From an uncultured Bacteroidota bacterium (GTDB lineage: Bacteria > Bacteroidota > Ignavibacteria > UBA10030 > UBA6906), in NCBI GenBank assembly GCA_963700635.1, contig CAVOYH010000003.1, positions 1-64,000 of the forward strand: a stretch of 64,000 bases of DNA, given 5' to 3'. This document shows positions 11,883-46,195 of this stretch, piece after piece. Below the pieces are notes generated by a model, which saw only the letters and a program-made list of their open reading frames with translations, did no database searches and was not told where the DNA came from. Within the stretch, counting starts at the first letter, position 1. Each line of letters opens with the position of its first letter. Position numbers and translations under genes: made by a program.

Positions 11883-11885
11883 TGA

Positions 11886-29614: not shown

Positions 29615-29683
29615 GGTGATGCCCTTGTGTTTTTATCGTGAGTTTCTCTGTATCGCGCCGGACGGATCACCGGAACGAACCTC

Positions 29684-32092
29684 TTAGTACACCAGCTGAA
29701 CACGATATACCGTTCCGTTTCCTCCGGAGAACGACAAAACTCCTTCGCGTCCGGTTGGTGTCTCAACAATCTGCTGCCCGGTGGTTTGATCAATCATCCT
29801 GAGCACAACCGGAGACTCTGAGCTATACTGCATGGTCGAAAACACGTCACCCGATCCTGTCGCCCGGAGCGTTACGGTGAGGGTGAGATTACGGAATCGG
29901 AGGTTTGAGATTGTATATTCTCCCCCGTCCGCGAGGAACCGGGTGGGCAGACACGGTGCGAGCAGAAATGCAGACGCCGCCGGATGTTCAGTCTCCCTAA
30001 ATCCGAAAATGTTGCGGATAACAAAAAGCGGAAGCGTGGCGCCCCAGCCATAGTGTTCTCCCCCGGCAGGACCATCATGCACCGGCCAGTATTCGTTTGC
30101 AACGCCGGGGATCCGATACGAAAACGGATCCGGGCCCGGCACAACGGTGAGGGCGTCCGTCCGCCGGTACACCCTGTCTGCTGTTGTTGCGACCACGTTG
30201 GCGGCGCTCAGCCGTTCTCCCGCATTCCACGCTGCTTCGGCATACGTAAGCAATGATGGCGGCCACTCAAGCGCCCCGGGGGGTGAATCGGCAAACTGGC
30301 GAATCGCCGGTCGAATGGCAGTGACGTGGGCAGGCGGTGCCACACCACACGTCAACGGGGCCAGCATCATCACATCATACCCGTCTTCGTGAAGAATCGG
30401 TCTGCCGGTGCGTCCATCCACGTCACAATACCGTCCATCAAAGAACATTGCCCTTGTGTTCGCGATGCGCCGTTCCGCGAGAGTGTTCCACTGACGTGCG
30501 TCGGAATCCCGTCCCAGGATCGTGGCAAACTGCTTCAGAATCTCCAGGGCGCGGGCCATGCTGGCCTCCACATCCACTGTGCGAACGAAGTCCGCCACGG
30601 CCCCTTCGTTCTGTTCGGCGACGAGAAAACGCCGTGAACCATCCTGCCCCGATTCCCAGCTGTTGTTACAGTGTAACCATCCGTCCGTATCGGTTCTGTT
30701 CTCCAGCCACCAGAGTGCATACGCTTTCAGAAACGGATAGATCTGTCCGGCCCACGCCGTGTCTCCGGACATCGCAAACAATGAAGAAAGAACCTGGAAC
30801 GGATATCCCCACATGGGCGCCGTTCCACATTCTGAGCCATCGGCAGAAATCATATTCACACTGCCGTCTTCGCGGACGCAGGGAACATTGGGAGCAATCG
30901 CGTCCGCAAACGTTCCATAGAGTACACGCCGTGCGAGGTGCGGGTCCGCATAGCTCAGCGCCAGCATATCAATCGCCGTTTCCCCAAGCACCACGCGGGG
31001 AGCGTGAATCTGCATGCCATCCCATGGGTGACGGAAGATGCCCAGCGGCCGGCGGACTGTCATCCGGAGAGTTTCGTAGTCATAGACCCATCCGCGCTTC
31101 CAGTAGCCGGGCCAATCCCCTTGCAGGGTAGGACACGCGTCCCAGAACCGTGCATCGTCGGCGAGAAGGGCTCTGACGGAATCCATCGCCGACCCGAGTG
31201 CCCGGCGAAGTTCAATACGGGCAAGGGACTCATTTGTCGCGCGGCTCAGACACACCAGCATCGTCTTCTGTTCACCCGGCTGCAGTGCCATGGCGTACCG
31301 TTGTGCCGTAAATAATGGGCCGCGCCCCTGGACAAACGCTGCTGGAACTGAAACCGGATTTTGCTGCCGGATCCAGGAGGAGAGAGACTCTTCCGAAGCA
31401 GTCGCATAGTGCGCAACCGGAGAACCGGAGGCACCGAGGGCACAGACGTCGCCGTACGCCCAGATCTTGCTGATGCTTATGCCTGCGGCCGTATCGTAAC
31501 GCACCGTCAGGCCGTCGCTCCCCCACCACTTCGTCTCCCCCAGAGTGTAGAGGTGTCCCGAATGCAGCACGACAGAACGCGGGGCAGACGAAGTGTTCAA
31601 CACCACCACGTCACACGCCAGCGTATGTTCGGATGGCAGAAAATACCGGAGACTTACCACGACACCTTCCGCGGCCCAATCGTAACTCATCAGCGATTTT
31701 GTATGATACGAGGAAGACAACGGTGTATCCGCGGCTGAAACAAAATCCCGCTCAGTCAGGAAAGTCTTTCCCTCTATGGCCACAGCCATGCGCAGGATGG
31801 CGATGTAATTGACATGATCCCTATCGCCGGAGGCGTACGCTCCCTTGTGGAAATCCGTACGCCACCATCCGAACCCCAGGGGCGGGTAAGAGCGGACCAC
31901 GCCGCTGCGATTGGCAACCATGCTATGGTATGGATTGTCCAGATAGCCATGGGGAGTGTATGTATCGCGGGGAAAGGCTGATGGCAGGAGGGAGACAGGG
32001 GGGGGCGTGTCCTGACAAAAAGCCGGCACAACAGCCGCGGCCCATACCACGAGCCATACCGCGGGGATGAGACGACATAGCCGTGCGTGCAT
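29684..32092 (-). CDS. GH63/trehalase-like six-hairpin glycoside hydrolase
   Basis: Signal peptide, WWLENRTDTDGWL, SWESGQDGSRRF, VDVEASM, ANEYW, YGWGA. Confidence 0.7.
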   Translation of the reverse strand: MHARLCRLIPAVWLVVWAAAVVPAFCQDTPPPVSLLPSAFPRDTYTPHGYLDNPYHSMVANRSGVVRSYPPLGFGWWRTDFHKGAYASGDRDHVNYIAILRMAVAIEGKTFLTERDFVSAADTPLSSSYHTKSLMSYDWAAEGVVVSLRYFLPSEHTLACDVVVLNTSSAPRSVVLHSGHLYTLGETKWWGSDGLTVRYDTAAGISISKIWAYGDVCALGASGSPVAHYATASEESLSSWIRQQNPVSVPAAFVQGRGPLFTAQRYAMALQPGEQKTMLVCLSRATNESLARIELRRALGSAMDSVRALLADDARFWDACPTLQGDWPGYWKRGWVYDYETLRMTVRRPLGIFRHPWDGMQIHAPRVVLGETAIDMLALSYADPHLARRVLYGTFADAIAPNVPCVREDGSVNMISADGSECGTAPMWGYPFQVLSSLFAMSGDTAWAGQIYPFLKAYALWWLENRTDTDGWLHCNNSWESGQDGSRRFLVAEQNEGAVADFVRTVDVEASMARALEILKQFATILGRDSDARQWNTLAERRIANTRAMFFDGRYCDVDGRTGRPILHEDGYDVMMLAPLTCGVAPPAHVTAIRPAIRQFADSPPGALEWPPSLLTYAEAAWNAGERLSAANVVATTADRVYRRTDALTVVPGPDPFSYRIPGVANEYWPVHDGPAGGEHYGWGATLPLFVIRNIFGFRETEHPAASAFLLAPCLPTRFLADGGEYTISNLRFRNLTLTVTLRATGSGDVFSTMQYSSESPVVLRMIDQTTGQQIVETPTGREGVLSFSGGNGTVYRVQLVY

Positions 32093-32158
32093 GTCACCTT
32101 CGCTTAATCACACAAGCTGAATGAGGAACGGCCGCGGGCCTGGAGTGCAGCAGCAAAC

Positions 32159-33079
32159 TCAGAACGACACGCCGATGCCGATACGATGGCTTCCGCCGAG
32201 GGTCGTGTAGTTGCTGTACGAGTAGTCTGCCCGCAAGCCGAGTCCCTGCACGTCAAAGGCGGCGCCTGCGCCCGCGGACCATGTTGCGGTGGAATAGTTC
32301 AGCCGATATCCGCCCCGAAGAAAGAATGTATTCTGGTAGTTCCATTCTCCTCCCACCTGCCCCTGGGGTTCTCCTTCATTGGGCTTTACGGCAGCAAAAC
32401 TGACGAGGAATTTTTGATCATCGCCGTCGATGGCGTTCATGGCCATCCCGAATTGGAAATTTGTCGGGAGTGGATAGGATTCGTTCACGTACTGGATGTT
32501 CGATCCGAAGTCCGCAATCTCCAGGGCAAACCTGAATCCGCGAAAATCCGACACATACATCACGGCGATGTCAAGCGAAAACGCATCGGCGCTGAACTCC
32601 CGGTACAATTTCAGATTCAGATAGCTGAGCGTGAGACCGAAGGTAACGCGGTCGGTGAGAAACCGTGCATACGATAGGCCAAACCGGTAATTCCCCGCAT
32701 AGAATGTCTCTCCCGTTCCCTCCGGCTGCAACGGCGTGCGCACCTTCATTTCATCCGTGTAGAGTGCGGTAACCGACACGCCAAACGCACCGAGATCATC
32801 GAAATTCTGCGAGGCAGCGACAAAATCGTGGTTGATGCCGGCAAACCAGGATGTGTGCGTGAACACCACATCCCTGCTGGGTACCCACGGCAATGCCGCA
32901 GGGTTGTAATAGGTAGCCTCGGCACCCTGCACGGCGGCCAGGTATGCATCACTCATTCCCGTTCCGCGTGCGCTCACGCCAATCTTGAGGAATTGTGCAT
33001 CCGTACTGCCCGGACGGTTATACTGTCCGTACAGCAGGTGGGGGAGTAGTACCATCAATCCGATCAACATGTGTTTCAT
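32159..33079 (-). CDS. PorV/PorQ-family (FadL-like) outer-membrane barrel
   Basis: AQFLKIGVSARGTGMSDAY, YYNPAAL, HTSWFAGI, FFLRGGY, ADYSY, HRIGIGVSF (terminal Phe). Confidence 0.85.
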   Translation of the reverse strand: MKHMLIGLMVLLPHLLYGQYNRPGSTDAQFLKIGVSARGTGMSDAYLAAVQGAEATYYNPAALPWVPSRDVVFTHTSWFAGINHDFVAASQNFDDLGAFGVSVTALYTDEMKVRTPLQPEGTGETFYAGNYRFGLSYARFLTDRVTFGLTLSYLNLKLYREFSADAFSLDIAVMYVSDFRGFRFALEIADFGSNIQYVNESYPLPTNFQFGMAMNAIDGDDQKFLVSFAAVKPNEGEPQGQVGGEWNYQNTFFLRGGYRLNYSTATWSAGAGAAFDVQGLGLRADYSYSNYTTLGGSHRIGIGVSF

Positions 33080-33110
33080 CGTCTTCACCCTCGGTGGCAC
33101 GGAGGCACTC

Positions 33111-34883
33111 TTATTTAATAATAACAAACTTGCCGACCTGGACTTTTGCGTTGTGCATATCTTCAACGGTGAACAGGTAGATCCCGCTCGCAATCGCCTG
33201 GCCGATGGAGGATGTGAGATTCCAGTCTTCGTATCCTCTTGCTGCATCGGTGTGATCAATGGTGGTGACCAGATCACCCGCAAGGGTATAGACTTTAATC
33301 TGACAGTTGGCGGGCAGGTTGATAAACTGGATTCTGCGGTCCTGTTCCATCCACCAGGGCCTGTTTCCCTGCGGACGTTCCCAGGGGGGGTTGTAGGAAT
33401 TGTAGGCGATATCCCCGCGGTAAGGGTTGGGCACCACGGCAACCTCCCCGACAGTTTCCGGAGGCGCGGTTCCCGGGATCACGGTCAATGCGTTGGCCGA
33501 AATACTGGTTTCCTGCGACGGGAAATTGATAACGTTGTCCGGCTTTGAGAAGGCCGTCAAACCATAATAGTATTCCACATTGTTGAGAAGCCCGCCGTCT
33601 TTGTACGTGTACTGCAGGCCGGTATTATGCCCCTCCTGGTTGATCAGATCATATTCCGCCAGAAGGGTCCACGGCCCATCGGGGCCCTTGGTGCTCTTGT
33701 ACAGCCGGTATCCTTCGAAGGGGTGTGTGATCGTATCCCCCCGGTTCGGATCGCTGTAGAGTTCCGGATTCACTCTGCCCGGAAGCGGGGTCCAGTCGAG
33801 GGAGACTTCATGATTCGCCGTGGTTATCCTCACGGATGGACGTGGTGGCGGCGACGGGACACGGAAATTTTTGCTTTTCAGGAACTTCAGATACTCTGCG
33901 TTCCTCAGGGCTCCTGCAACGCCATACCCGAACACCTGGGCCATCTCCACCACAATCGTGTCACCCACATTGATCTGGAATGGGCCGAAAGCGAAGATGA
34001 TGTGCGCGCGTGCACGTTCGATACGGTCCGGCATGATCCGTCCGCTTGCCATGTCTTTGTAACAGGCGGGATCTTTGCTCGGCAGCTCTTCGTGTTCGTA
34101 GTAGTTGAAACTCCAGCTGGGTGATGTTGTGGGGGCCATCACGTTGAACCCGATCGGGCTTATCGCCGTCCCGTCCGTCCAACCGGGTGAATCCTCAGCC
34201 ATCGCCATCTTGTAGTCCGGGAACCACCGGGTGTATTCGTCGATGTAATTGTCGCCGGCGGCGATAGTCCCGATAGAACTGTGCATCCAGAAGCCGATGA
34301 AAGCGTCCTTGATCGGGATTTTTTTGGCCACGATGTAGTATTTGTGCAGCAGGAATTCGTTAAGCTGTCCCGAGCTCCAGGAATATGTTGTCTGGATGAT
34401 GTCCAGGTGGAGCGGCGTGTGGTTGTCAATATTCAACACATTATAGTCGCTGTACCGGGAGACAAAGTCCTGATCGGAAACACATTCATACTCTGGCCAG
34501 TAAGGGATGTTGAGGGTGTCTCCCTTTGAACCTGTCCAGATGGAATCCCAGTTGTTCTTTGTGGGATAAAACTCGTGGGGGGAGAAGTGCGCCTCTGACT
34601 GTGAGACAAGCGTATCGCCGGTCGGCGTTATCCCGCCAATCCAGATGCCACCCTGGTAGAGGTGCTCTTCATCGCTGCCGGGCGGAAACTCTGCATTGAT
34701 AAGGCCCGGGTATCGTGTCCGGCCCTTGGAGAAGGTTCCCATATTGGTGATAACCTGTCGGACATTCCCGACCGTGGTCATCCTCCAGTCCAGCTTCGCA
34801 TCGATAAACTGGGAAAACACAAGCGCTTCGGGCACCAACAACAGGATGCACGCCACAGCAAGGGATCGTCTCAACACACTCAT
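33111..34883 (-). CDS. secreted protein with Fn3-like domain and a variant T9SS-type C-terminal domain
   Basis: FEGYRLYKS, YYYGLTAF, then VAVVPNPY...RRIQFINLPANCQIKVYTLAGDLV...WNL...IASGIYLF...GKFVIIK. Confidence 0.75.
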   Translation of the reverse strand: MSVLRRSLAVACILLLVPEALVFSQFIDAKLDWRMTTVGNVRQVITNMGTFSKGRTRYPGLINAEFPPGSDEEHLYQGGIWIGGITPTGDTLVSQSEAHFSPHEFYPTKNNWDSIWTGSKGDTLNIPYWPEYECVSDQDFVSRYSDYNVLNIDNHTPLHLDIIQTTYSWSSGQLNEFLLHKYYIVAKKIPIKDAFIGFWMHSSIGTIAAGDNYIDEYTRWFPDYKMAMAEDSPGWTDGTAISPIGFNVMAPTTSPSWSFNYYEHEELPSKDPACYKDMASGRIMPDRIERARAHIIFAFGPFQINVGDTIVVEMAQVFGYGVAGALRNAEYLKFLKSKNFRVPSPPPRPSVRITTANHEVSLDWTPLPGRVNPELYSDPNRGDTITHPFEGYRLYKSTKGPDGPWTLLAEYDLINQEGHNTGLQYTYKDGGLLNNVEYYYGLTAFSKPDNVINFPSQETSISANALTVIPGTAPPETVGEVAVVPNPYRGDIAYNSYNPPWERPQGNRPWWMEQDRRIQFINLPANCQIKVYTLAGDLVTTIDHTDAARGYEDWNLTSSIGQAIASGIYLFTVEDMHNAKVQVGKFVIIK

Positions 34884-34911
34884 AGCATCGCTCTCACGGC
34901 TGTGATCAGAG

Positions 34912-37704
34912 TTAAAAATCGATTCTGAGGCCCAGTTTCGTCGTTCGTCCAGTGGAGAAGATACGCGGATCCCGGAGACTCAACATAGTATAATAGTCGT
35001 ACAGATTGTTTTGCGGCTTCTCTATGTCGCCGTATTTGTACGGTTCTCCGGTCCACGTGTTGAAACCGAGGTCCGATCGCACGGTTTGTACGTTCCGTTG
35101 ATCGAACAGATTAAACACATCAAAGGTCACTGCCAGGCGGATACCGCCCACCGTAAAGCCCTTTTCAAATTTCAGATCAGTACTGCTCGTGAACGGTCCG
35201 TAGGCTGTATTCTCCTGCTTCTGGGATTCCACCGGATTCAGTGAGGCCTGCCCCGGTGTGTACGGCGTCCCGCCCGAGAACCGGTAGAGCAACGTGAGGT
35301 TCCAGTCATCGGAAAGCTCAAGCCCAAAGACATTCGGGTGCTGTCCCTTTCCTGCTGCCAGCGTCGCCTGTACGATAATCTGATGGCGGACATCCCACTC
35401 CAGCGCGCGTTCGCGAATCGGGTAGGGGAAGTTGTTCGTGGAACGGACATAGTCGTCAAAAGCCGACGAAGAGTAACCGTTCGCCCACTGGATGGTGTAT
35501 GTCGCCCTCCCCCCGATGTAATCCGAGGGGTTCTTGACTATCTCGAACTCCAGTCCCCTTGTTCGCCCGTATCCCTTGTTATCGTACAGATCGATCGGGG
35601 TCCCCTGCGTGCTGTACACACGCGTGGTCCCGATCTGCTTCGAAATATCTTTTCCGTAATTTTTTATATCGATCGCCCAGTAGTCGGTCAACTGGTGTGT
35701 GAACCCGAACTCGTACAGGATTGTCTGTTCGTAATCCAACCCGGGGTTGCCGGTAAATCCGCTGCTGTACGGATCCCGGTAGTAATACTGCAGCTCGGGT
35801 AACTGGTTAAAGTGTCCGTATGAGAAGAACACAACCGTGTTTTCGGATATGGGAAACGACACACCGAACCGCGGACTGATTTTGAAGATGGACTGGTTCC
35901 AGCTCGGTTTGAGTCCCGTTGCCCGTTCCCACGTTGCCATCCACTCCTGTTGCATGACACTCTTGCCGAGATTGAAGTAATCGACCCTGACCCCCGCATT
36001 GATGACGAGGTACTCCAGTTCAAACTTATCCTGAAAGTACACCGAGGCAATGATCGGTTTGACGTCAAAGACCCACCGGTTCTGGCCAAACAGCGGGAAG
36101 GGCCCGGGCGGCGGTATGGAATCAATCCCCTGTCCGTACCGCGACAACTTGGCGCCCCCATCCTGAATGTCGATGTAGCTGATGGTGTTGAACGAACCTT
36201 CGATCCCGACCTTGATGAGGTGGGCGGGATGGACCTGGGAAGTAAGGTCCCCTTTGAACGTGTATGTCTTGGTGTGATCATCCCGCCAGATCGATTCCAC
36301 TCCCTGGGCGTCAAAGAAACCGGTACTCGGGTTGATGATTGGTGATGTGTAGAACGAAATGTAGCGTCCGGAAGTATCCTGCCGCCAGAACTCCGGAGGA
36401 GTCCGGCCGCCGAGAGAGCCTCTGTACTGCACATCCAGATAGCCTGCCATCAACGTGTAGTACGTGGACTTGGAAAGCACATTGCTGAACGATGCGTTGA
36501 GGGTGTAGTTGTTCCGACGATAGTCTGCAGTATTGTCCGGATTGTATTTCCACAGATAGGAGAACGAACTCCACTGTTTTTTGGATCCATGATAGCTCAG
36601 TGCAAGTTTGTGTTCCCCGCTGATATCCCAGTTCAGTTTGGCATTCAGATTCGTGGAATTGTCCTGCCGTTCGCGGATATTCCACGCGAACATCTCAAAA
36701 TCACGTCGTGACCGTTTGTTGTCGTAGGGCGTGTTTGTCAGCGTGGTGTTGCCGGAGAGAAAAAACGTCAGACCTTTGAACGGGTGTACGCCGAGAGCGG
36801 GCAACAGGGTCTGCGTGATGGGTTCCGGCCCACCGATGTAAAACGAACCGTAGTCGGTGGTGTAGGATTCACCAAAGACCCCCGCCTGGTCGGTTTTGAA
36901 TTCAATCCCTCCCTTGAATGAGTCGCCACCGCTTTTTGTAATAATATTCACAACCCCGGATTGCGCCTGACCGTACTCGGCGTTAAATGCGCCGGTGAGG
37001 AGTTCCACGCTCTCCACATCAACAAGATTCAGGTCCATGACACTGCGCCCGCCGTAAATCGGATGTGTCACCGGCATACCGTCAACCATATACAGGATTT
37101 CGCCGCCCCGGCCGCCGCGGATATGTACATCTTGGAGACTTTCATCCCGAACCTGCAGCTGTGTCCCGTCGGCAAGCCGGAGAGTCGGAGGCGCGGCGGT
37201 TAATACCGTACCCCCCTGAAGCTTGAAAATGTCGGTCGTCGCATCCAGGCCCGGTGTTTCGCGGATGGTGCTCTGCGAGACCGTGCGCCGGGTCGAGGTG
37301 ACATCTTTCTGCACCATTTTCTGCTCGGCCAGAACGGTCACGCCTTCAACTTCAATGGCGGATTGCTCCAGCTTTACGTGGAGTTCGGCCGTAAGATCCA
37401 CCTGGACGCGCACACCCTTAAATGTGATCCCCTGGTAACCCACGCTTGTAACCTGCAGATCGTGCACACCGGGGGGTACGCGGAGGATATAGAAGTGCCC
37501 TTCGATGTCGGTGGATGCGCCGAGTGCGGTCCCCTTCACCGCCACATTTGCGCCGACGAGCGCTTCGCCGGTACCTTTGTCTTTCACCGTTCCTGCTATC
37601 TTCCCCAAGTTTTGCGGAAATGCCGAGGGAACTATCAGCAGGACGGCAAGCACGACGGCCACCGGGTGAACAGAGAACAACCATTGAAGGGGGCGCCACA
37701 TCAT
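34912..37704 (-). CDS. TonB-dependent receptor with carboxypeptidase-regulatory-like N-terminal domain
   Basis: GKIAGTVKDKGTGEALVGANV, plug HIRGGRGGEILYMVDG, TGAFNAEYGQAQSGVVNIITK, ISPRFGVSFPI, C-terminal LRIDF. RBS AAGGAG. Confidence 0.92.
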   Translation of the reverse strand: MMWRPLQWLFSVHPVAVVLAVLLIVPSAFPQNLGKIAGTVKDKGTGEALVGANVAVKGTALGASTDIEGHFYILRVPPGVHDLQVTSVGYQGITFKGVRVQVDLTAELHVKLEQSAIEVEGVTVLAEQKMVQKDVTSTRRTVSQSTIRETPGLDATTDIFKLQGGTVLTAAPPTLRLADGTQLQVRDESLQDVHIRGGRGGEILYMVDGMPVTHPIYGGRSVMDLNLVDVESVELLTGAFNAEYGQAQSGVVNIITKSGGDSFKGGIEFKTDQAGVFGESYTTDYGSFYIGGPEPITQTLLPALGVHPFKGLTFFLSGNTTLTNTPYDNKRSRRDFEMFAWNIRERQDNSTNLNAKLNWDISGEHKLALSYHGSKKQWSSFSYLWKYNPDNTADYRRNNYTLNASFSNVLSKSTYYTLMAGYLDVQYRGSLGGRTPPEFWRQDTSGRYISFYTSPIINPSTGFFDAQGVESIWRDDHTKTYTFKGDLTSQVHPAHLIKVGIEGSFNTISYIDIQDGGAKLSRYGQGIDSIPPPGPFPLFGQNRWVFDVKPIIASVYFQDKFELEYLVINAGVRVDYFNLGKSVMQQEWMATWERATGLKPSWNQSIFKISPRFGVSFPISENTVVFFSYGHFNQLPELQYYYRDPYSSGFTGNPGLDYEQTILYEFGFTHQLTDYWAIDIKNYGKDISKQIGTTRVYSTQGTPIDLYDNKGYGRTRGLEFEIVKNPSDYIGGRATYTIQWANGYSSSAFDDYVRSTNNFPYPIRERALEWDVRHQIIVQATLAAGKGQHPNVFGLELSDDWNLTLLYRFSGGTPYTPGQASLNPVESQKQENTAYGPFTSSTDLKFEKGFTVGGIRLAVTFDVFNLFDQRNVQTVRSDLGFNTWTGEPYKYGDIEKPQNNLYDYYTMLSLRDPRIFSTGRTTKLGLRIDF

Positions 37705-37714
37705 CGCAATCTCC

Positions 37715-39199
37715 TTACTGTACATGCAAACTCCGGAGAATTTCCTGTGCCATCACCTGAGCATCCTGTTTCTTAATGAAGTACATCGGGAATCCAAGCA
37801 CCACGGCGTCAAAGACGGTTCCATAATATCGTAACGCAACGGCCCTGCCGCGATAGGTAACATTCGGACTGGAAAGGTCGTTTTCGTATGAATACAGGAT
37901 GTCGGTAAACCCGGCCATCGTGGTGATAAGATTCACCTGTGACAGTTTGCCGTCGTACGGGAAATTTGCAAGGCGGGCAGAATCCACCTGGATACTCGAA
38001 AACGACCCGGTCTTCCCTTTTGCTCCCGTCATATCACCGAGAATGTCGGTCTCTGTCACACCCCTGATGTGCAGATAATCATACACAAATGTACCCGGGG
38101 TGAACGAGAACGGGAAGTTGTTGTAGTATGCAAACGACTTCAGGATACGCCAGCCTCCCATCAAAAACTTCCCGCCGACCTTCAGGTAATCCGTAAATAC
38201 TTCTATGTTCGCCGGGTCGGAGATCTTGTGCGGCCTGCTCGCCGGCACGTCGTCGGCGTGCCAGACGATGAGCTTGTACTCGGCCAGGATCTCCCGCGGC
38301 GGCATTCCCCGGGTTTTAAAATCCCATTCCGTGGCTCCCGGGAAAACATCTGCGTAAAACTTGTCCACCACGCTGTCGGGAATACCCCAGGTGATAAACG
38401 GATTGTTAAACTCGTCCGTCTCATCGATGATGATCACGTTCTTGCTGAAGGAAGGGATCAACAGGGTGACCGACACGGAATCGCCGACAGGGTCGAGAAG
38501 ATTCGTATTGTTGCGTGAGGTGACCTTCAGTTTGTGGCGTCCGTTCAGGGAACCGGGAATCTTGTCCGGCGTGATGAAGATGGACGTGTCTGTCTGCCAT
38601 GTCCAGGGGCCGTCATCTACTGACCATGCATAATCCACAATTTTCCCACGGCCGGTGGGATCGGTGCCCTTGAATACCAGCAGGACTCCCTGCCACCAGT
38701 CGGTCACCTGCGGACTCACCAGAAGGGTTCCGTTGTTCGAGGGATAGAGTATCTTCGTAATCGGCGGACTGGTGCGCAATGTATACAGGATCCGCTCGGC
38801 CGGGGTCGGGTCCGGGTTCCCTGCATTGTCGATCGCCCGTACAAGAAACCGCTGCATGTTCAGCGCTTGAGTCGAATTAAAGGCAATGACCGCACCTGTC
38901 CCCGTGGTATCATGCCATGCCGTCGAGTCGTACAACTCCCAGAACGTTGAAGAACCGGGCGCAAGATGATACGTGAAATACCGGTACTGGTACCCCGCCA
39001 CATATCCGTCATTGTCACCACCGGTCCAACTCAGACTGACCAGCGCAAAGACGGTGTCTTGCTCCTTCGGCACATTGGCGAGCCGGGTATCGGGCGGACC
39101 GTCAGGATTCTCCGGAGCTACCGGACGCTCGCAGGAGAGCCAGAGAGGAACACAGGCTGCAGCAAGCAGCATAAGTGAAACCGCGGACCATCGTCTCAT
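37715..39199 (-). CDS. surface lipoprotein (Ig-like repeats plus a C-terminal alpha/beta domain)
   Basis: Lipobox-like WLSC. Repeated SWTGGDNDG / FKGTDPTG modules, RAIDNAGNPDPTPA. Confidence 0.7.
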   Translation of the reverse strand: MRRWSAVSLMLLAAACVPLWLSCERPVAPENPDGPPDTRLANVPKEQDTVFALVSLSWTGGDNDGYVAGYQYRYFTYHLAPGSSTFWELYDSTAWHDTTGTGAVIAFNSTQALNMQRFLVRAIDNAGNPDPTPAERILYTLRTSPPITKILYPSNNGTLLVSPQVTDWWQGVLLVFKGTDPTGRGKIVDYAWSVDDGPWTWQTDTSIFITPDKIPGSLNGRHKLKVTSRNNTNLLDPVGDSVSVTLLIPSFSKNVIIIDETDEFNNPFITWGIPDSVVDKFYADVFPGATEWDFKTRGMPPREILAEYKLIVWHADDVPASRPHKISDPANIEVFTDYLKVGGKFLMGGWRILKSFAYYNNFPFSFTPGTFVYDYLHIRGVTETDILGDMTGAKGKTGSFSSIQVDSARLANFPYDGKLSQVNLITTMAGFTDILYSYENDLSSPNVTYRGRAVALRYYGTVFDAVVLGFPMYFIKKQDAQVMAQEILRSLHVQ

Positions 39200-39256
39200 A
39201 GGACACCTACCATCTCTTCAATACTCCGGCCTGTTCTGTTTCGTACTAACCATGTG

Positions 39257-39916
39257 CTAGCGCGTTGTCACACGTGTAACGACCACTTTACGTTCGAACA
39301 AAAACTGATCCCGGTACCGTCGCAGGGACTCGTAAGGCCGAATTTCCAGCTGGACCTCGGTCACACCCTGTTCGTTCACGGTGAACGACGCGGGAAATTC
39401 CATATTCGGGGCGACACCCGGAGGGAGACTGACGGGATTGAGGTAATGTTTGGGGACAAAAATCTCCATTTCCGAAGCGGTGATGCTGAGGGATATCTTT
39501 GTGTAGTTCCCCGGGGGGACGTATGAATCAAAGATCACATGCTGGCGGAACCGGCTGTTTGCCGCCGTGATTACGGTGGTATCCTGGATCGTAATCGGAA
39601 TGCCGTTCAGCCATTCCCGTCCCAGAATATTGACAGTATCGCTCCCTTTGCGTTCGCTGGTGACGTTGTTATAGATATATGCGGAGGCATCGCTGCCCTG
39701 ATAGGCGCGTCCCTGGGCCACAATAACGTCAAACTTGTCCCATCGCGAAAACCGCGACGTATCACTCTGAATGATGATCGTCGTATCGCTGTCTGCACCC
39801 TTCAGCGTTATGCGCAGGACACCGGGTTCGGGGGATGGCTCCACGTTGGTCCTGCACCCCTGCACAGACCAGAGGAGAGAGCACACCGCAAGCAACAGAG
39901 TTACACTCTTCCGCAT
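39257..39916 (-). CDS. lipoprotein, DUF4382-like
   Basis: Lipobox-like VQGC, then GVLRITL...VPPGNYTKISL. Confidence 0.6.
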   Translation of the reverse strand: MRKSVTLLLAVCSLLWSVQGCRTNVEPSPEPGVLRITLKGADSDTTIIIQSDTSRFSRWDKFDVIVAQGRAYQGSDASAYIYNNVTSERKGSDTVNILGREWLNGIPITIQDTTVITAANSRFRQHVIFDSYVPPGNYTKISLSITASEMEIFVPKHYLNPVSLPPGVAPNMEFPASFTVNEQGVTEVQLEIRPYESLRRYRDQFLFERKVVVTRVTTR

Positions 39917-39950
39917 ACACGCCTCGTTTCCTTCATGAACACCTTCTGAG

Positions 39951-40040
39951 TACAGGGAGTAGGCAGTAGGCAGAATATCTCCCGGAGGGCCTGAGCGCCC
40001 GTTTCCGTACACACGTTCTGCCTACTGCATACTTCGTACA
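39951..40040. repeat. intergenic inverted repeat built from degenerate heptamers
   Basis: gcagtaggcagaa (39963-39975) and ttctgcctactgc (40016-40028) form a perfect 13-bp IR. Tandem agtaggc units on the left and 7-nt periodicity on the right. Confidence 0.65.
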
Positions 40041-40104
40041 GCACCTGCACTCCATCTACTCCCGACATCACATCTGCTCCAGCCCGCACTGCGGGCCGTA
40101 CTGA

Positions 40105-42243
40105 TTACCGCATCAACATCATCTTCATGGTCTTTTCATACTGACCGGCAGTCAGACGGGCAAAGTACACACCGCTGGCCACACCGAAGCCCGTGTCGCT
40201 GTTTCCTTCCCACCGGACAAAATGCTGTCCGGCATGGAGGTTTTCGTTCATGAGCGTCTTCACCTTACGACCCAGCAGGTCATAGACCACAAGCTGGGTT
40301 TGCAGGGCGGATGGGATCGTGAATGAAATCTGCGTGCTCGGGTTGAAAGGATTCGGATAGTTCTGCTTCAATTCGAACGTCCACGGGGAGTTCGGATCAA
40401 TCGGGCCTGATACGTCGGTAATACCAGCCTTGGCGTAGTTATAGAGCTGGACGTTATCCAGGTGCCCGCGGAACGGCGGGATGTACCACCAGTTGGATGG
40501 ATCCGTATAGGCACGCCCGATGCGCATCGTTGCCGGACCGACCGAACCGCCCATGATGGGAGGAACCGGAGCATCCGTTACCTGGAGATACTTCAACACG
40601 TCATTGGAGTCGCGCACCGAGAGAGCGACCTTTCCTGCCACAGAGCTCCGCTCGTACACTACGTGATACCATTGTCCAAATTGCGTGGCATTGGTATCCT
40701 GCAGGGCGATCATAGAGAGGTTATCTGCGCGGGAATATCTTCCCGTGATTGCGATCCGTCCCTGCGCGTTATTCCGGAAGCTGACTTCAAAGTTGTTGTT
40801 GTTCCAGTCTGCTTCGGTTTGCGCGTAGTTGATGATCCGTGATGCATGCTGTGTCGTGTCGGCACGCAGCCAGAAATCCAGACAGAACTCTTCTGCTGCA
40901 AGGAACGGCGAGGCTGCTTCCACCCAGCCGGAATCAATATCCGGCCGCGGATAGAACAGATACAGCGAGGCGTTTCCCTGTTTGCGGATAGTAGAATACG
41001 TCGGGATTCTTTTTGCCGTGATCACCGAATTGTTCGGTGAGTGGTCTATCGGCATGTTTCCCGTACCTTCTTCGAATGTCAGCCACAACGTCTGGGAATT
41101 CGGCTCGAAGATATAGAATGTATAGTACTGCGGATTCGATGGCTTTTCGGCAGTCAACGGGACCACCGAGCGCATGCCGTTGTTGTCCATTGCGGTGACA
41201 AAATACTTGATTTGCGAGCCGGACGGACGGGCGGGGATTGTCCCGGAGAAGTCGACCCCTGCTCCGGTCATGGTCAGGCTGTCCCACTGTGTGGTATAGT
41301 AATGCAGCTTTGCACTGGTGATTGTCCCACCCAGGTTAAACGGCTGGATCTTTGCATTGACCGTGTATCCCGTGGCTGTCGCTGGTTGATTTGCGAGCCG
41401 GGTCACGTTGGTGATAAGGGGCGGACCGGCAAAATTCCGGACCACCTTGCTGATCCGGATTTCATCCAGGAATCCATCCAGCCAGGAGTCGCCACTCGGA
41501 GAGGCATTCACTTTCGCGCCGGCCCATCCGATGTGAATCGGATTAATATTGGTCTTGGGGATGTCGCCCGGATTGAAGCCGGCGGCTGTAAACGAAAGAA
41601 GGTTCTTGTTTACATCGTGCACCATCTGTGCGATGATGCCGCGGGAGGCATCGCGGATGAACGTAAGGTGGACCCATTGCCCAGGAGCGAACATGTTGTT
41701 TTCGGAGCTGACGCTGACAAACGCATCGTTCTCGGCATAGTAGCCGGCATGGAAGAGGCGGTTGTCGCCCCACATTTCCAGCCAGTAGTTCGGATGCCAG
41801 AACACATCGACACCGGGTTTCATCACGACACGTGGCACCCAGCGATAGTCATTGGAGGCATCGCCGAATGTAAAGATATTTGCCCACGCCTCAATGGTCC
41901 ACGACCCCTGCATATCAAACGCAGCCGTGTCGGCAACGGTAAGATACGTCGAGTCCGTGATTGCTCCGTTGTCCAGACGTACACACTGACCCATACCGGC
42001 GACACCGGTATTGTTCAGGAAGTAGATCTTTGACGGGCTGGTGGTATTGCGGACGGCGGCGGTGTCGGTCTTGCCGAGTGCAGCCGCAGCATTTGCCATG
42101 TTACCATCGAAATGGAGAAGCAGGACAGTATTGGAATCAGCGGTATAGGGCCCGCCAATCGCCTCGAGAGCCTGCGCATGCAGCCCGACCGCAAACACCA
42201 CCGTCAGGATGACGATGGAAAAGAAGTAGAACCGGGATTTCAT
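40105..42243 (-). CDS. double LamG/ConA-like domain protein with canonical T9SS type A C-terminal domain
   Basis: LLLHFDG, WTIEAW, GQWVHL, GFLDEIRIS. Second LamG: GQWYHV, FRGHLDNVQLY. CTD LKQNYPNPFNPST...KMMLMR. RBS AAGGAGG. Confidence 0.85.
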   Translation of the reverse strand: MKSRFYFFSIVILTVVFAVGLHAQALEAIGGPYTADSNTVLLLHFDGNMANAAAALGKTDTAAVRNTTSPSKIYFLNNTGVAGMGQCVRLDNGAITDSTYLTVADTAAFDMQGSWTIEAWANIFTFGDASNDYRWVPRVVMKPGVDVFWHPNYWLEMWGDNRLFHAGYYAENDAFVSVSSENNMFAPGQWVHLTFIRDASRGIIAQMVHDVNKNLLSFTAAGFNPGDIPKTNINPIHIGWAGAKVNASPSGDSWLDGFLDEIRISKVVRNFAGPPLITNVTRLANQPATATGYTVNAKIQPFNLGGTITSAKLHYYTTQWDSLTMTGAGVDFSGTIPARPSGSQIKYFVTAMDNNGMRSVVPLTAEKPSNPQYYTFYIFEPNSQTLWLTFEEGTGNMPIDHSPNNSVITAKRIPTYSTIRKQGNASLYLFYPRPDIDSGWVEAASPFLAAEEFCLDFWLRADTTQHASRIINYAQTEADWNNNNFEVSFRNNAQGRIAITGRYSRADNLSMIALQDTNATQFGQWYHVVYERSSVAGKVALSVRDSNDVLKYLQVTDAPVPPIMGGSVGPATMRIGRAYTDPSNWWYIPPFRGHLDNVQLYNYAKAGITDVSGPIDPNSPWTFELKQNYPNPFNPSTQISFTIPSALQTQLVVYDLLGRKVKTLMNENLHAGQHFVRWEGNSDTGFGVASGVYFARLTAGQYEKTMKMMLMR

Positions 42244-42396
42244 TGGTTACCCTCCTTGTGATGATGGCATAACGTAAAGCATTAACTGCCGTGTGCGCAA
42301 GAGCCGCACGACCCGAAGGACGGCAGGACAGTAATCATGTGGACGTCGGATCACCTCCCTTCATTGGAAAACACGCATGAGACAATTGTTCGTGTG

Positions 42397-42415
42397 TTCG
42401 ATGTTAGCGCTAACA
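42397..42415. promoter_or_regulatory. LacI-type palindromic operator TGTTAGCGCTAACA, copy 1
   Basis: Perfect 14-bp palindrome at 42402-42415. The 19-mer ttcgatgttagcgctaaca is identical to the copy at 46166-46184. Confidence 0.8.
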
Positions 42416-42484
42416 CACCTGACCATACCGCTCGGAGATCAGTCTTCTGTGTCAACATTCTGGATGAATCGGGAGATTGCCTGA

Positions 42485-42513
42485 ATGCTAACGATTGTAT
42501 CCATAAAAGTCAA
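42485..42513 (-). promoter_or_regulatory. putative sigma70 promoter for the glycan locus
   Basis: TTGACT-N17-TAGCAT on the minus strand, upstream of operator copy 1. Confidence 0.4.
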
Positions 42514-42540
42514 CAGAAAAATGAACTTTCGGCACTCTTA

Positions 42541-43692
42541 CTATTTCGTCGAAAAACGGTAGACAATTTTAGATGAATATGACTGCCCCGGCTCCAACAC
42601 TACCGATGGAAAACCCGGCTTGTTGGGCGAATCCGGAAAATGCTGCGGCTCCAGGCAGAAACCATGACGGAATTCGTATTTCACCCCACCTTTGCCCACC
42701 AACGTGCCGTCCAGGAAATTCCCGGAATAGAACTGCACCCCCGGCTGATCGGACAATACCTCCAGCACCCGCCCGGTAGTTTCCTCCACAACCCGGGCAT
42801 TGACCGTCAGCGATTGTTGAGGCGAATTTAATACCCAGTTATGATCGTACCCTCCCGGTCCCAGATGTAACTGCGGATCCCCGGCACCGATTCTCGACCC
42901 GATCGCTGTGGGAGTCCGGAAATCCATCGGGGTCCCGGTCACGTCCCGCAACTCGCCCGTCGGGATCAAGCCACCGTCCACCGGCGTGTACCGGTCTGCA
43001 TCGATCATCATCAGGTGTTCGAGTATGCTCTTCCCCGAAGTCGCCCCTGCCAGATTAAAGTAGGAATGCGCTGTCAGATTGATCGGAGTCGGCCGGTCCG
43101 TGGTGGCCGAGAAGTCAATCACGAGCTCGTTCCCCGCCTTGAGTGTGTAGACCACCTTCGCACGGAGATTGCCCGGGTACCCCTCTTCCCCGTCCTTACT
43201 CAGGTAGCTCAGCACAAGAGACTGGCCGTCAGGTGCATTCACCTGCTCGGCATCCCACACAACCTTGTCAAATCCTTTCAGACCACCGTGGAGATGGTTC
43301 GCCCCGTCATTCACGGTCAGTTGATAGGCCCGCCCCTCGAGCGTGAACCGCCCCTTGTCGATCCGGTTCCCGTACCGCCCGATCAGCGCGCCAAAATACG
43401 GAGTTGACTTGAGATAGTGCGCCAGCGAGTCATACCCCAGGACCACATCATCAAACTTCCCGTTACGGTCCGGGACGCGCATGGTGACGATAATCCCGCC
43501 GTAATTTGTGATCGTGACTTCCATACCGGCCGCGTTTTGTAATGTGTACAGGAAGACCTCCCGTCCATCCGGTGTTTTGCCAAATGCTGCAGCATGGTGT
43601 TTCATAGGATCCTCAGATGTACGTGAACAGCCCGTCATCCATCCCGCCGATATCACCAGCAGGCTGACAAGACCAGTGCGAACGACACTCAT
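42541..43692 (-). CDS. galM: aldose 1-epimerase (galactose mutarotase), with lipoprotein-like signal
   Basis: DDVVLGYD, GRYGNRI, HLHGG, NLTAHSYFNL, YDHNW, QFYSGNFLDG, CLEPQHFPDSPN. Confidence 0.95.
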   Translation of the reverse strand: MSVVRTGLVSLLVISAGWMTGCSRTSEDPMKHHAAAFGKTPDGREVFLYTLQNAAGMEVTITNYGGIIVTMRVPDRNGKFDDVVLGYDSLAHYLKSTPYFGALIGRYGNRIDKGRFTLEGRAYQLTVNDGANHLHGGLKGFDKVVWDAEQVNAPDGQSLVLSYLSKDGEEGYPGNLRAKVVYTLKAGNELVIDFSATTDRPTPINLTAHSYFNLAGATSGKSILEHLMMIDADRYTPVDGGLIPTGELRDVTGTPMDFRTPTAIGSRIGAGDPQLHLGPGGYDHNWVLNSPQQSLTVNARVVEETTGRVLEVLSDQPGVQFYSGNFLDGTLVGKGGVKYEFRHGFCLEPQHFPDSPNKPGFPSVVLEPGQSYSSKIVYRFSTK

Positions 43693-43739
43693 AGGAATAC
43701 CTCGCCGAAGTTGTGAACGTGAACTGATCAGTGACATAT

Positions 43740-45056: not shown

Positions 45057-45075
45057 GCACCTGGTCCTTCTCTTG

Positions 45076-46140
45076 TCAATTGTTCCCGCGGGTCAACACG
45101 GACGCACAGACGCCCCTCAGAACATCCGCGGCAGATTCGGGAGTAAGATCCCGTTGTGGCTCGGCGAGCATTTCGTAGCCCACCATGTACTTCCGGACTG
45201 TCGCCGAGCGCAACAGCGGAGGGTAGATGTGTGCGTGGAGCTGCCAGTGGTCAACGTTCTCCGGTTGGTATGGGGCTCCGTGCCATCCCAGCGTGTAGGG
45301 GAATGAGACTGAAAACAGCGCGTCGTATCCGGCAAGCACTGTGTGCAGGAGTTGTGCGAGCGTCTCCCGTTGTACGATGTTCAGATCAGGAAGTCGCAGG
45401 ACGTGTGCGCGCGGCATCAGCAGGAGTTCGAATGGCCAGACAGCCCAGTACGGGACCACGGCAACCCACTGTTCATTTTCTGCGACCACACGTTCCGCGA
45501 TCGCACGTTCCTGTGCGCAGTAATCTTCCAGCAGGATGGATCCCTGCAGGGTGAGATATTTCTGCTGGGCGGCATGCTCTTTTAAGGGCTCATTCGGAAG
45601 CATCGAACCCGCCCAGATTTGTCCGTGGGGATGCGGGTTGGAACATCCCATCATCCCCCCCTTGTTCTCAAACACCTGCACCCATCTGTACTTCTCACCG
45701 AGCACCGCCGTTTCACTCGCCCAGGCATCCACAACGTTCCGTACGTCCGTCTGAGGAAGTTCCGCCAGCGTAAGGTTGTGCCGCGGAGAGAAGCAGACGA
45801 CGCGGGAGGTCCCGGTGACGGTTTCCCGCTGGAAGAGCGGATCTGCCCGGGGTGACCGGGCGACAGGTTCCGGCGGATGTATTACCCCCGTTATGCCCGG
45901 AAGGAGCGCGGGAAAGTCGTTGTCAAAGACAAACGTAGAGGAGTAGTCGGGATTGATCTCCCCGTTGGCCCTCGTATTCCCCGGACAGAGGTAGCACTCC
46001 GGATCATAGGCAGGCAGGGAAACGGGAGGGAGAGCACCTATTTCCCCCTGCCATGGTCGCCGGTTTCGTTGAGGGGAAACCAGCACCCATTCTCCTGTAA
46101 GCGGGTTCCGTCGGCGGTGTGGGTGTTGTATGGAAGTCAT
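45076..46140 (-). CDS. galT: galactose-1-phosphate uridylyltransferase
   Basis: [59 protein letters not shown]. Confidence 0.96.
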
Positions 46141-46165
46141 TACGGTACGAATTCGCTCTGCAACC

Positions 46166-46185
46166 TTCGATGTTAGCGCTAACAT
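46166..46185. promoter_or_regulatory. LacI-type palindromic operator, copy 2, upstream of galT
   Basis: atgttagcgctaacat is a perfect 16-bp palindrome at 46170-46185, about 30 nt before the galT ATG. Confidence 0.8.
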
Positions 46186-46195
46186 AAGAAACCTA

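Follow-up and report, generated by a model that had tools for sequence, protein, structure and literature searches.

A TonB-dependent receptor cassette with a variant C-terminal-domain protein and a private PorV/PorQ-family barrel in an uncultured Ignavibacteria bacterium

We analysed 64,000 nucleotides of DNA (the window; positions 1 to 64,000 of contig CAVOYH010000003.1, GenBank assembly GCA_963700635.1) from an uncultured bacterium of the class Ignavibacteria, Bacteroidota. Between positions 32159 and 42243 of its minus strand lie six co-oriented, closely packed genes, one of which encodes a TonB-dependent receptor (TBDR). We propose that the six genes probably encode an outer-membrane nutrient-capture unit around this TonB-dependent importer, in which a secreted 590-aa protein is anchored beside the TBDR by a barrel of its own. 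The 590-aa protein ends in a variant form of the C-terminal domain (CTD) used by type IX secretion systems (T9SS).

An initial sequence-only reading of the window described a LamG-CTD protein, two lipoproteins, a TBDR, a protein of ~590 aa and a PorV-like barrel, followed by glycoside hydrolases. All of these are present and co-oriented, the two lipoproteins as probable ones, and the spacing within the six-gene run ranges from an 11-nt overlap up to ~185 nt. The genes, and the domains of the 590-aa protein, are as follows.

40105–42243, minus strand: LamG (concanavalin-like) secreted protein with a type A T9SS CTD (712 aa; CTD at residues ~628–712, with YPNPFN)
39257–40012, minus strand: small probable lipoprotein (251-aa open reading frame, ORF; likely start Met at 39919, for a length of 220 aa; VQG precedes the Cys)
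37715–39199, minus strand: 494-aa probable lipoprotein (two immunoglobulin (Ig)/FN3 domains and a ThuA/class-I-amidotransferase-like domain)
34912–37725, minus strand: TBDR (937 aa; carboxypeptidase-regulatory-like N-domain, plug, barrel)
33111–34883, minus strand: 590-aa secreted protein (supersandwich, FN3 and variant CTD)
33858–34805, minus strand: its N-domain, a galactose-mutarotase-like β-supersandwich (residues ~27–342)
33474–33857, minus strand: its FN3-like middle domain (residues ~343–470)
33111–33473, minus strand: its variant CTD (residues 471–590 plus stop)
32159–33079, minus strand: PorV/PorQ-family outer-membrane barrel (306 aa; signal peptide, then QYNRPGS)

The variant CTD, its barrel and the other cassette proteins

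The CTD of the 590-aa protein consists of VVPNPY, a conserved insertion of ~28 residues (489–516), RRIQFINLP and the ending GKFVIIK. We aligned it with 13 sister CTDs of the same genome and six type A CTDs. The variant class retains the type A framework (PNPY/F, I-F-x-NLP, an I-x-I-Y/F strand, SG-Y and a terminal K/R) and departs from it in V-V/R-PNPY, the 13–30-residue insertion that follows and the GK-x-x-I-I-K ending. Hidden Markov models (HMMs) built from this genome give the 590-aa protein 123.4 on the variant model versus 18.4 on the type A model. On TIGR04183 it reaches 14.0 bits against a cut-off of 23, and PF18962 (cut-off 27 bits) gives no match at E ≤ 0.01. The other CTDs of the window, at 40105–42243, 46285–48282 and 54213–54512, are of type A (88.9–118.1 bits) and carry YPNPFN or FPNPFN; the own-genome scores agree with the sequence-only reading, which had called the 590-aa CTD non-canonical beside these three. 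Of the type B models, neither TIGR04131 (E ≤ 0.1) nor PF13585 (E ≤ 0.01) matched the 590-aa protein, with the proviso that HMMER filters may drop very weak matches.

Across the assembly, 14 CTD proteins are of the variant class (62.9–132 bits) versus 131 of type A, and the highest variant-model score outside the 14, from a type A protein, is 33.5. The model was itself built from thirteen of the 14 variant ORFs, whose scores therefore hold by construction; the informative part is that the model recovered a fourteenth, frameshifted member and gave no further hits beyond the TBDR modules described below.

Structure prediction relates the variant CTD to that of PorZ. We obtained an AlphaFold2 model of the 590-aa protein from 35 sequences, with a mean predicted local distance difference test (pLDDT) score of 82.9. 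Its residues 474–590 superimpose on the PorZ CTD (5m11_A) with Z 11.6 and a root-mean-square deviation (rmsd) of 2.8 Å over 88 aligned residues at 26% identity. The model has a type A-style CTD fold: a seven-stranded Ig-like β-sandwich at the C-terminus, with PNPF/Y and a C-terminal K/R. The same C-terminus matches the PorZ C-terminus model NF052228 at E 1.6e-6, and five of the six genome proteins other than PorZ that match the CTD part of the PorZ model are variant-CTD proteins. Conversely, the canonical PorZ of the genome scores 24.4 on the variant model and 0 on the type A model, and its C-terminal ending is similar to that of the variant class. By its sequence features, the variant CTD is a derivative of type A, not of type B, and in both sequence and modelled fold it is nearest to the PorZ CTD. 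The mean identity of orthologues to the window protein is 0.76 for the CTD and 0.79 for the insertion versus 0.59 for the N-domain. The insertion forms a low-confidence loop in the monomer model (pLDDT < 50 at residues 490–499 and 510–513); this fits a segment that becomes ordered on a partner.

The barrel gene follows directly. The listed ORF (32159–33442, 427 aa) overlaps the 590-aa gene; the alignments of 23 orthologues begin at the residue encoded by the ATG at 33079, which is therefore almost certainly the true start (306 aa). The barrel matches NF033709, the model of the PorV/PorQ family, over positions 2–326 of 326 at 182.2 bits against a cut-off of 90 (182.7 bits in the whole-genome search). 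It falls short of the narrower models: PorV NF033710 (67.4 and 60.8 bits; cut-off 250), PorQ NF033711 (61.2 and 61 bits; cut-off 220), PorV2 (70 bits; cut-off 325) and PorP/SprF TIGR03519 (17.2 bits; cut-off 90.55). Its sole sequence relative in the PDB is Flavobacterium johnsoniae PorV (6h3i_F, E 3.9e-13).

The housekeeping T9SS is encoded away from the cassette, with SprA, PorU, PorV, PorZ and PorQ all present (coordinates outside the window are given as contig:positions). PorU (973 bits) is directly followed by PorV (C2:143765-144772, 255.9 bits), the only match above the PorV cut-off; the canonical PorQ lies at C1:348926-349810 (227.3 bits), and PorZ (330.5 bits) and SprA (802+221+59 bits, in one frame) are found elsewhere. 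The possibility that the cassette barrel is the housekeeping PorV or PorQ was therefore rejected, the true ones being at other loci, and the suggestion of the sequence-only reading that it is a private paralogue held up. The CTDs of PorU and PorZ are kept, bound to PorV and PorQ, respectively, and cognate PorV-like barrels have been hypothesized to shield CTDs from cleavage (PMC10202324). By analogy, the module looks like this principle of a retained CTD and a PorV-like barrel used many times over.

The 590-aa protein has no Pfam family match. A word-indexed search that scored 8000 candidates retrieved 566 relatives at E ≤ 1e-3; among the best 120 of these, all named ones are called 'hypothetical' and none has a precomputed Pfam domain. 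An exhaustive comparison with 1.84 billion cluster representatives gave 3636 matches at E ≤ 1e-3, 1136 at E ≤ 1e-10 and 147 at E ≤ 1e-30. In the model, the N-domain most closely resembles dextran dextrinase 9ju0 (Z 19.9, rmsd 5.3 Å, 266 aligned), glucoamylase 1lf6_A (Z 19.0, rmsd 3.0 Å, 230 aligned) and glucodextranase 1ulv_A (Z 18.9, rmsd 3.1 Å, 233 aligned), all three matched through their N-terminal domains, and many GH65, GH94 and GH116 enzymes match as well. The resemblance to N-domains of carbohydrate enzymes and to mutarotases is at Z 16–20. With Z 15–20 over ~220–266 residues for more than 15 entries, it has a galactose-mutarotase-like supersandwich, an assignment at the level of fold only. 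We also considered a catalytic N-domain: matches to GH174 fucanases (8jd7_B, Z 13.3, rmsd 3.6 Å, 227 aligned; 9k1g_B, Z 13.3, rmsd 3.5 Å, 220 aligned) and lyases (5xq3_B, Z 14.4; 3a0o_A, Z 12.5; 5no8_A, Z 12.3) rank under those to non-catalytic N-domains in the model comparison. For residues ~343–470, FN3 arrays dominate the Foldseek list and the strand pattern of the model concurs with an FN3-like domain.

The TBDR comprises the domains PF13715 (CarbopepD_reg_2), PF07715 (Plug) and PF00593 (barrel). On the SusC/RagA model TIGR04056 it scores 76.8 bits against a cut-off of 368.25, over model positions 2–207 only. The stop codon of the 494-aa lipoprotein gene and the start codon of the TBDR gene overlap by 11 nt. 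Cys23 of this lipoprotein is unchanged in 23 orthologues, and its AlphaFold2 model (mean pLDDT 88.2) contains two Ig/FN3 sandwiches and a ThuA/class-I-amidotransferase-like α/β domain; residues 252–494 superimpose on 5xb7_A (Z 15.7, rmsd 3.4 Å, 197 aligned) and on the ThuA-like 1t0b_A (Z 14.5, rmsd 3.4 Å, 207 aligned). No Pfam or NCBIfam family matches the small lipoprotein, and a comparison by features suggests DUF4382-like clusters (0.95), which is no more than a lead. The rest of the genome contains no paralogue of either lipoprotein. The 712-aa LamG protein matches PF13385 (56.4 bits) and TIGR04183 (38.8 bits; cut-off 23); its CTD scores 118.1 with the type A model of its own genome and, because it is of type A, the protein is probably attached by sortase.

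Lipoprotein status, signal peptides and export signals were judged by eye from the sequence. The predicted signal peptides of the barrel, 590-aa and LamG proteins end in A, S or G followed by an invariant Gln (Q19 in the barrel, Q25 in the 590-aa protein). These ends recall the 'Q-rule' for Bacteroidetes signal peptidase I substrates, which is said not to hold across the whole FCB (Fibrobacteres, Chlorobi and Bacteroidetes) group (PMC5837995).

Conservation and duplication of the module

SusC/SusD is the accepted model of Bacteroidota glycan capture, and the prediction of polysaccharide utilization loci (PULs) relies on finding that pair. None of the cassette proteins matches the SusD families PF07980, PF14322 or PF12771, and each of the three has zero matches in the 97%-complete assembly, with a Bacteroides thetaiotaomicron control positive each time. 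The absence of a SusD-like protein after the TBDR, remarked on in the sequence-only reading, thus extends from the cassette to the whole assembly at the level of these families. Two candidates for a divergent SusD were rejected by their modelled folds, the 590-aa protein by its β-rich architecture of supersandwich, FN3 and CTD, and the 494-aa lipoprotein by its two β-sandwiches and α/β ThuA-like domain; no SusD-type entry is among the listed fold matches of either model. The sequence-only reading had allowed for one lipoprotein having a SusD fold, and none is seen in the model of the 494-aa protein; the small lipoprotein, with ~200 residues when mature, is too short for the ~500-residue fold. 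For SusC/RagA, none of the 20 genome matches to TIGR04056 is above the cut-off (best 93.6 versus 368), and all cover the N-terminal extension and plug only.

Among 121 sampled genomes of the GTDB phylum to which the window belongs, all with a completeness of 90% or more (related genomes are not independent), every one of the 30 from the window's class has PorV-family matches, from 3 up to at least 16. SusD occurs in only six of these 30, with one or two matches each, in agreement with the single susCDE operon of the Melioribacter roseus genome (PMC3534657). Ten genomes of the sample with at least 16–17 SusD matches have one to three PorV-family matches. Two families have both PorV-family and SusD matches, and one family of 25 genomes has neither.

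The cassette has many sister copies in its own genome. Of 19 PorV-family ORFs in the assembly, 15 lie directly downstream of a TBDR, and 14 of these 15 follow the order TBDR, variant-CTD protein, barrel; the exceptions comprise PorV, PorQ, a single orphan and two tandem ORFs on contig C5. All 14 variant-CTD ORFs are inside modules of TBDR and barrel, with none elsewhere, and variant CTDs and barrels correspond one-to-one. The middle proteins are between 590 and 1283 aa long and have only the FN3 and CTD end in common, so that this part of the 590-aa protein recurs in the larger proteins of the sister modules; in a Pfam scan of 143 ORFs around 12 other modules, no family was found in the middle proteins.

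We compared distance matrices of 13 modules by Mantel tests with 9999 permutations, using the last 600 aa of the TBDR, the last 115 aa of the CTD protein and the barrel. The correlations are high for TBDR and barrel (r 0.93), TBDR and CTD (r 0.91), and CTD and barrel (r 0.88), each with P = 1e-4. Without the modules of contig C6 and, stepwise, without the closest pairs (n = 11, 10, 9), r is 0.60–0.81 and P 1e-4 to 0.0053. Judged by these distances, the TBDR, CTD protein and barrel are shown to duplicate and diverge as a unit, which does not imply contact between them. The triad therefore co-diversifies, also after close and possibly foreign pairs were dropped.

Beyond this genome, a pattern scan restricted to one genome per species yielded 259 stretches with a relative of the 590-aa protein, and the best 80 of them gave 65 distinct loci, each with an orthologue at 49–83% identity. 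Neighbours were counted only at loci with enough flank and had to be co-oriented and in the same order. The TBDR is directly upstream of the 590-aa gene at 59 of 60 loci, the barrel directly downstream at 56 of 57, the 494-aa lipoprotein upstream of the TBDR at all 54, the small lipoprotein at 47 of 50 and the LamG orthologue further upstream at 46 of 48. The misses are L075, which is rearranged, L031 and L041, which have inserted genes, and L069, with no barrel within its 1450-nt flank. The loci carry labels of the Ignavibacteria or Melioribacter type (17), the Calditrichota or Caldithrix type (15), generic Bacteroidetes or Bacteroidota (14), KSB1 (4), unlabelled 'bacterium' (4), Rhodothermales or Rhodothermaceae (2) and Cytophagia (2), with one each for Neomarinimicrobiota, Fidelibacterota, Zhuqueibacterota, Chitinophagales, Deferribacteres, Spirochaetota and Archaeoglobus; these labels are the submitters' titles of records of metagenome-assembled genomes, and some are surely wrong. 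L051, whose record is labelled Melioribacter roseus, carries an orthologous cassette at 54% identity. The neighbourhood survey bears out conservation of the triad across lineages. The sequence-only reading had also spoken of an alternative architecture outside Bacteroidia; 'outside Bacteroidia' is correct, and the conserved unit here is one of six genes, not three.

Around 20 loci have a gap of ~1.8–2.1 kb between the TBDR and the 590-aa gene. At L033 it is filled by a second tandem paralogue (8074–9930, 618 aa) beside the first (9950–11728). A similar gap separates the 590-aa gene from the barrel at four loci, one of which, L043, has a second paralogue at 11492–13282 after that at 9619–11421. 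With two tandem 590-aa paralogues and a single barrel at L033 and L043, the two CTD proteins may share the barrel, or just one of them may be anchored.

Proposed mechanism and alternatives

We hypothesize that Sec and, after it, the T9SS of the genome export the 590-aa protein. Its PorZ-like variant CTD would stay uncut and be gripped by the adjacent PorV/PorQ-family barrel, as PorQ grips PorZ. The anchored CTD would keep the supersandwich domain on its FN3 stalk at the cell surface next to the TBDR, where the domain would capture an oligosaccharide that is probably a glycan containing alpha-glucoside or galactose, and pass it to the TBDR. The two lipoproteins and the LamG protein would be further cassette-specific parts of a larger surface assembly, and periplasmic GH63-like enzymes, Leloir genes and a symporter would complete the pathway. 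Of this scheme, we infer the retention of the CTD, its binding by the barrel, the proximity to the TBDR, the binding of glycan and the substrate.

A structural precedent for the proposed arrangement is provided by BamG–BamH on BamA in Bacteroides, where BamA, itself a barrel, is the docking site of a 14-stranded barrel of the FadL/PorV-like kind whose extracellular loops hold a surface protein (PMC12578637). Unlike the cassette, BamG–BamH serves the biogenesis of outer-membrane proteins and has unrelated partners; the likeness is structural.

A wider form of the proposal, which we put forward tentatively and consider doubtful, is that relatives of Bacteroidota with few or no SusD proteins (Ignavibacteria, Calditrichota, KSB1, Marinimicrobia and others) might deliver the substrate-capturing partner of the TBDR through the T9SS instead of by lipoprotein export. 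They might hold it by a PorZ-like, uncleaved CTD with a lineage-specific insertion, in a private barrel docked on the transporter's side in the manner of BamG on BamA, as a stable three-protein machine. The present cassette, extended by two lipoproteins and a lectin attached by sortase, might then be a six-protein 'utilisome' with three surface-attachment chemistries. If true, the SusCD problem would have found an independent second answer, possibly the older of the two.

Several observations weigh against the proposed capture unit or narrow it. Linkage and co-diversification both follow from duplication of whole operons, for which physical contact is not needed. The module at C3:404626-414926 has its barrel directly after the TBDR and its variant-CTD gene three genes upstream, with the TBDR and two other genes between. 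In a maximum-likelihood tree of 18 PorV-family proteins, the 13 module barrels are separated only weakly from PorV, PorQ and three others, with a branch support of 63/84 at a point where long branches meet. The contrast in conservation between the CTD and the body of the 590-aa family is just moderately above that of the LamG orthologues, in which the type A CTD is at 0.54 identity and the body at 0.46. The two conserved lipoproteins adjoining the TBDR are equally good candidates for a lid. As to sugar binding, the N-domain also resembles the P1 domain of YidC (Z 13.1, rmsd 4.0 Å, 210 aligned), and we only infer this property from the model because the supersandwich is common to non-catalytic enzyme domains and even to YidC P1. 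Scans of positions 23000–42800 for promoters and terminators gave chance-level results (12 versus 11.7 expected and 20 versus 17.0 expected, respectively). A GH63-like homologue (at least 45% identity) lies downstream at only 22 of the 44 loci whose flank extends 3 kb or more.

The sister modules add further reservations of the same kind. Four contain split genes, the TBDR or the middle protein being in two ORFs (C3:141420-144624; C4:60512-63161 + 64321-66756; C3:1798795-1801291; C3:1651013-1653999 + 1654095-1657558). Since the assembly has only six contigs, these may be long-read or assembly indels rather than decay, or they may be pseudogenes. Contig C6 (182 kb) carries a second rpsD-rpoA (L089, 15518–17161) besides that on C3 (L088, 2361–4004); the two RpoA copies are 89% identical, and each copy is beside a syntenic module of TBDR, CTD protein and barrel. 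Given this second rpsD-rpoA and an estimated contamination of 6.73%, C6 probably comes from a second, related organism on sequence grounds, so that two of the 15 modules may not belong to the genome.

The neighbours of sister modules are also mixed. Some are of a glycan type: LacI with GH31 and a MalK-type ATPase; GH97 with GxGYxYP, GH38 and a sugar ABC transporter; rhamnosidase-like enzymes with oxidoreductases (twice); and a GHL10 enzyme. Others are of a peptide type (NlpC/P60, MR_MLE epimerase, D-Ala-D-Ala dipeptidase and M14 carboxypeptidase), and two modules adjoin histidine kinase/LytTR regulators with LolA-like/FtsX genes. Such mixed neighbours argue that the module is a general uptake device, of which the window copy is the one with GH63-like and galactose genes. 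The label of glycan uptake given in the sequence-only reading therefore fits the window copy, with its GH63-like and Leloir context, and fails for the module family as a whole, in view of the peptidase and murein-peptide neighbours. Three modules lie within 40 kb at C3:130001-165000 together with NlpC/P60+SH3, MR_MLE-type epimerase and D-Ala-D-Ala dipeptidase genes; because these neighbours are typical of murein-peptide recycling, the copies there may import peptidoglycan fragments, not plant or algal glycans.

The best-surviving alternative, although we regard it as unlikely, is that the variant-CTD protein and the barrel are a self-contained T9SS cargo-and-anchor pair that is merely co-regulated with the TBDR, like a surface glycan-binding protein (SGBP) or a surface enzyme, with no part in gating. 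The evidence for pairing of CTD and barrel is explained equally well in this way, and the displaced CTD gene at C3:404626-414926, on the far side of the TBDR and away from the barrel, would suit it. It is also common for PULs to include genes for surface proteins that leave the transporter uncapped, as is established for Bacteroides utilisomes (see also PMC7618045). Against such a free-standing pair, all 14 variant-CTD proteins are in TBDR modules, adjacency to the TBDR is kept at 59 of 60 loci across phylum labels, and TBDR distances follow those of the CTD and barrel (r 0.67–0.93). This linkage is tighter than is usual between an SGBP and SusC.

An improbable alternative makes one of the two conserved lipoproteins the true lid and the 590-aa protein an accessory binder. 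Both lipoproteins precede the TBDR directly and are kept at 54 of 54 (494 aa) and 47 of 50 (small) loci, the stop of the larger overlaps the TBDR start, and its modelled Ig/FN3 domains are typical of surface proteins; moreover, non-SusD lipoprotein lids beside non-SusC TonB-dependent transporters (TBDTs) have been proposed for Bacteroides (10.1101/2023.03.17.533168). On the other side, the lipoproteins are without paralogues in the other modules, where the CTD protein and the barrel are universal, and the residues after the Cys (ERPVAPEN and RTNVEPSP) do not look like an obvious Bacteroidota export signal.

It is very improbable that the cassette is no import unit at all, with a TBDR-like protein that exports or assembles its neighbour, as Oar does for PopC in Myxococcus, or with a FadL-type barrel that is a channel for a hydrophobic substrate: Oar-type receptors also have a carboxypeptidase-regulatory-like N-domain (see also PMC6434023), PorV is a FadL homologue (PMC12578637) and a sister barrel shows weak similarity to Toluene_X (27.3 bits, under the cut-off), but a T9SS with more than 130 CTD cargoes is already available for exporting CTD proteins, the neighbours are catabolic enzymes and inner-membrane sugar transporters, and a curated model places the barrel in the T9SS PorV/PorQ family.

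The nutrient-capture unit that we favour resembles several known systems in part. Like SusC/SusD (RagA/RagB), it combines a TBDT that has a carboxypeptidase-regulatory-like N-domain with an adjacent surface partner in a locus of glycosidases and sugar catabolism, and exists in many paralogous copies. In contrast to SusC/SusD, the cassette TBDR fails the SusC/RagA model, the partner is neither a lipoprotein nor an α-helical tetratricopeptide-repeat protein, and a third gene, for a PorV/PorQ-family barrel, is obligatory in the module. The type B CTDs of Flavobacterium and of Porphyromonas gingivalis PG1035 offer another parallel, a dedicated PorP/SprF-like barrel being encoded beside an anchored CTD protein whose type B CTD is uncleaved (PMC10202324). 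The module differs in that its CTD is derived from type A and its barrel fails the PorP/SprF model. Linkage to a TBDR is, to our knowledge, not a feature of type B systems.

The likeness to PorQ–PorZ and PorV–PorU of P. gingivalis lies in a CTD protein that is bound by a PorV-family barrel and whose CTD is kept there (PMC10202324), as we would expect here. The genome differs in having about 12–15 additional barrel/CTD pairs besides canonical PorQ, PorZ, PorU and PorV, each tied to a TBDR; unlike PorZ, the module CTDs have the 13–30-residue insertion after PNPY, and the cargo heads are unrelated to the PorZ propellers. Finally, the non-SusD lipoprotein lids (BtuG, XusB, HmuY, DUF4249, DUF4625 and DUF4876) are also surface partners beside a non-SusC TBDT and conserved with it (10.1101/2023.03.17.533168). 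BtuG/XusB-type lids reach the surface by lipoprotein export, whereas the universal partner in the module is a T9SS cargo with its own barrel; the two lipoproteins of the cassette might be of the lid type.

In the open-access papers and bioRxiv preprints searched, we found no account of a module of TBDR, CTD protein and PorV-like barrel. The nearest printed concepts are the non-SusD lipoprotein lids (10.1101/2023.03.17.533168) and the hypothesis of cognate PorV-like barrels (PMC10202324). The window contributes the smallest and best-conserved member of the family with a confident model, a six-gene order kept across lineages, a count in one assembly that pairs each variant CTD with a barrel, the finding that canonical PorU, PorV, PorQ and PorZ are separate, and the test of co-diversification.

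Large environmental lineages degrade polymers and possess many TBDRs and a T9SS, but few or no SusD genes; the module would explain how they feed and would serve as a marker for the utilization loci of SusD-poor lineages. If the proposal is true, the PorV/PorQ family gains the function of holding transporter partners, and there is a further class of CTD that is retained, not cleaved. Being small, very conserved (49–83% identity across phylum-level labels) and confidently modelled, the 590-aa family is the most tractable for structural and binding work.

Flanking genes and other features of the window

The cassette is part of a longer co-oriented run.

42541–50026, minus strand: upstream galM, galK, galT, and the genes of a secreted ASH/DUF1573 protein that bears a type A CTD and of a sodium:solute symporter
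29684–32092 (802 aa) and 26809–29547 (912 aa), minus strand: two six-hairpin GH63-like hydrolases (PF22422), directly downstream of the barrel gene
23190–26796, minus strand: FGE-sulfatase-type protein and a DUF2961 gene in truncated form, which close the run

The upstream genes belong to the Pfam families PF01263, PF00288/PF10509, PF01087/PF02744, PF15780 and PF00474, and the type A CTD is that of the ASH/DUF1573 protein at 46285–48282. The GH63-like pair matches PF22422 at 45.4 and 164.9 bits, and the 912-aa enzyme matches the alpha-glucosidase model PRK10137 at 106.6 bits, under its cut-off of 625. The FGE-sulfatase-type domain (PF03781, 138.9 bits) is C-terminal in a 933-aa protein, and the truncated DUF2961 ORF (23190–24008) matches PF11175 at 94.9 bits over profile positions 1–92 of 235 only.

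These flanks are far less constant than the six-gene core. Homologues of the FGE-sulfatase-type and DUF2961 genes are found downstream at 12 and 13, respectively, of the 44 loci whose flank extends 3 kb or more, and a Leloir gene upstream at 10 of the 19 loci whose flank before the LamG gene measures 1.5 kb or more. One promoter-like site precedes the LamG gene (42513–42485, minus strand) but carries no evidential weight, because the sigma-70 consensus may not suit this lineage.

The first 23.4 kb of the contig differ in composition, with a GC content of 0.66–0.70 versus 0.56 in the rest of the window and 0.55–0.57 in all six contigs. The switch is sharp, at ~23,400, and lies inside the DUF2961 ORF, which it cuts. 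A Pfam family was found in only four of 18 long ORFs scanned in positions 1–23400 (DUF5663, Inositol_P, APH and VWA_2). This segment is either a chimeric assembly join or foreign DNA.

At the other end of the window, an ORF with a GH3 N-terminal domain (54436–55608, 390 aa, minus strand) overlaps a 99-aa ORF (54213–54512) that is a complete type A CTD; the two look like a single GH3-CTD enzyme (54213–55608) broken by a frameshift or an assembly indel. Beyond it, RecD-, RecB- and RecC-type genes (PF13245/PF13538; PF00580/PF12705; PF04257/PF17946) lie in a row at 55667–63990 on the minus strand, an ordinary recBCD-type cluster unrelated to the cassette.

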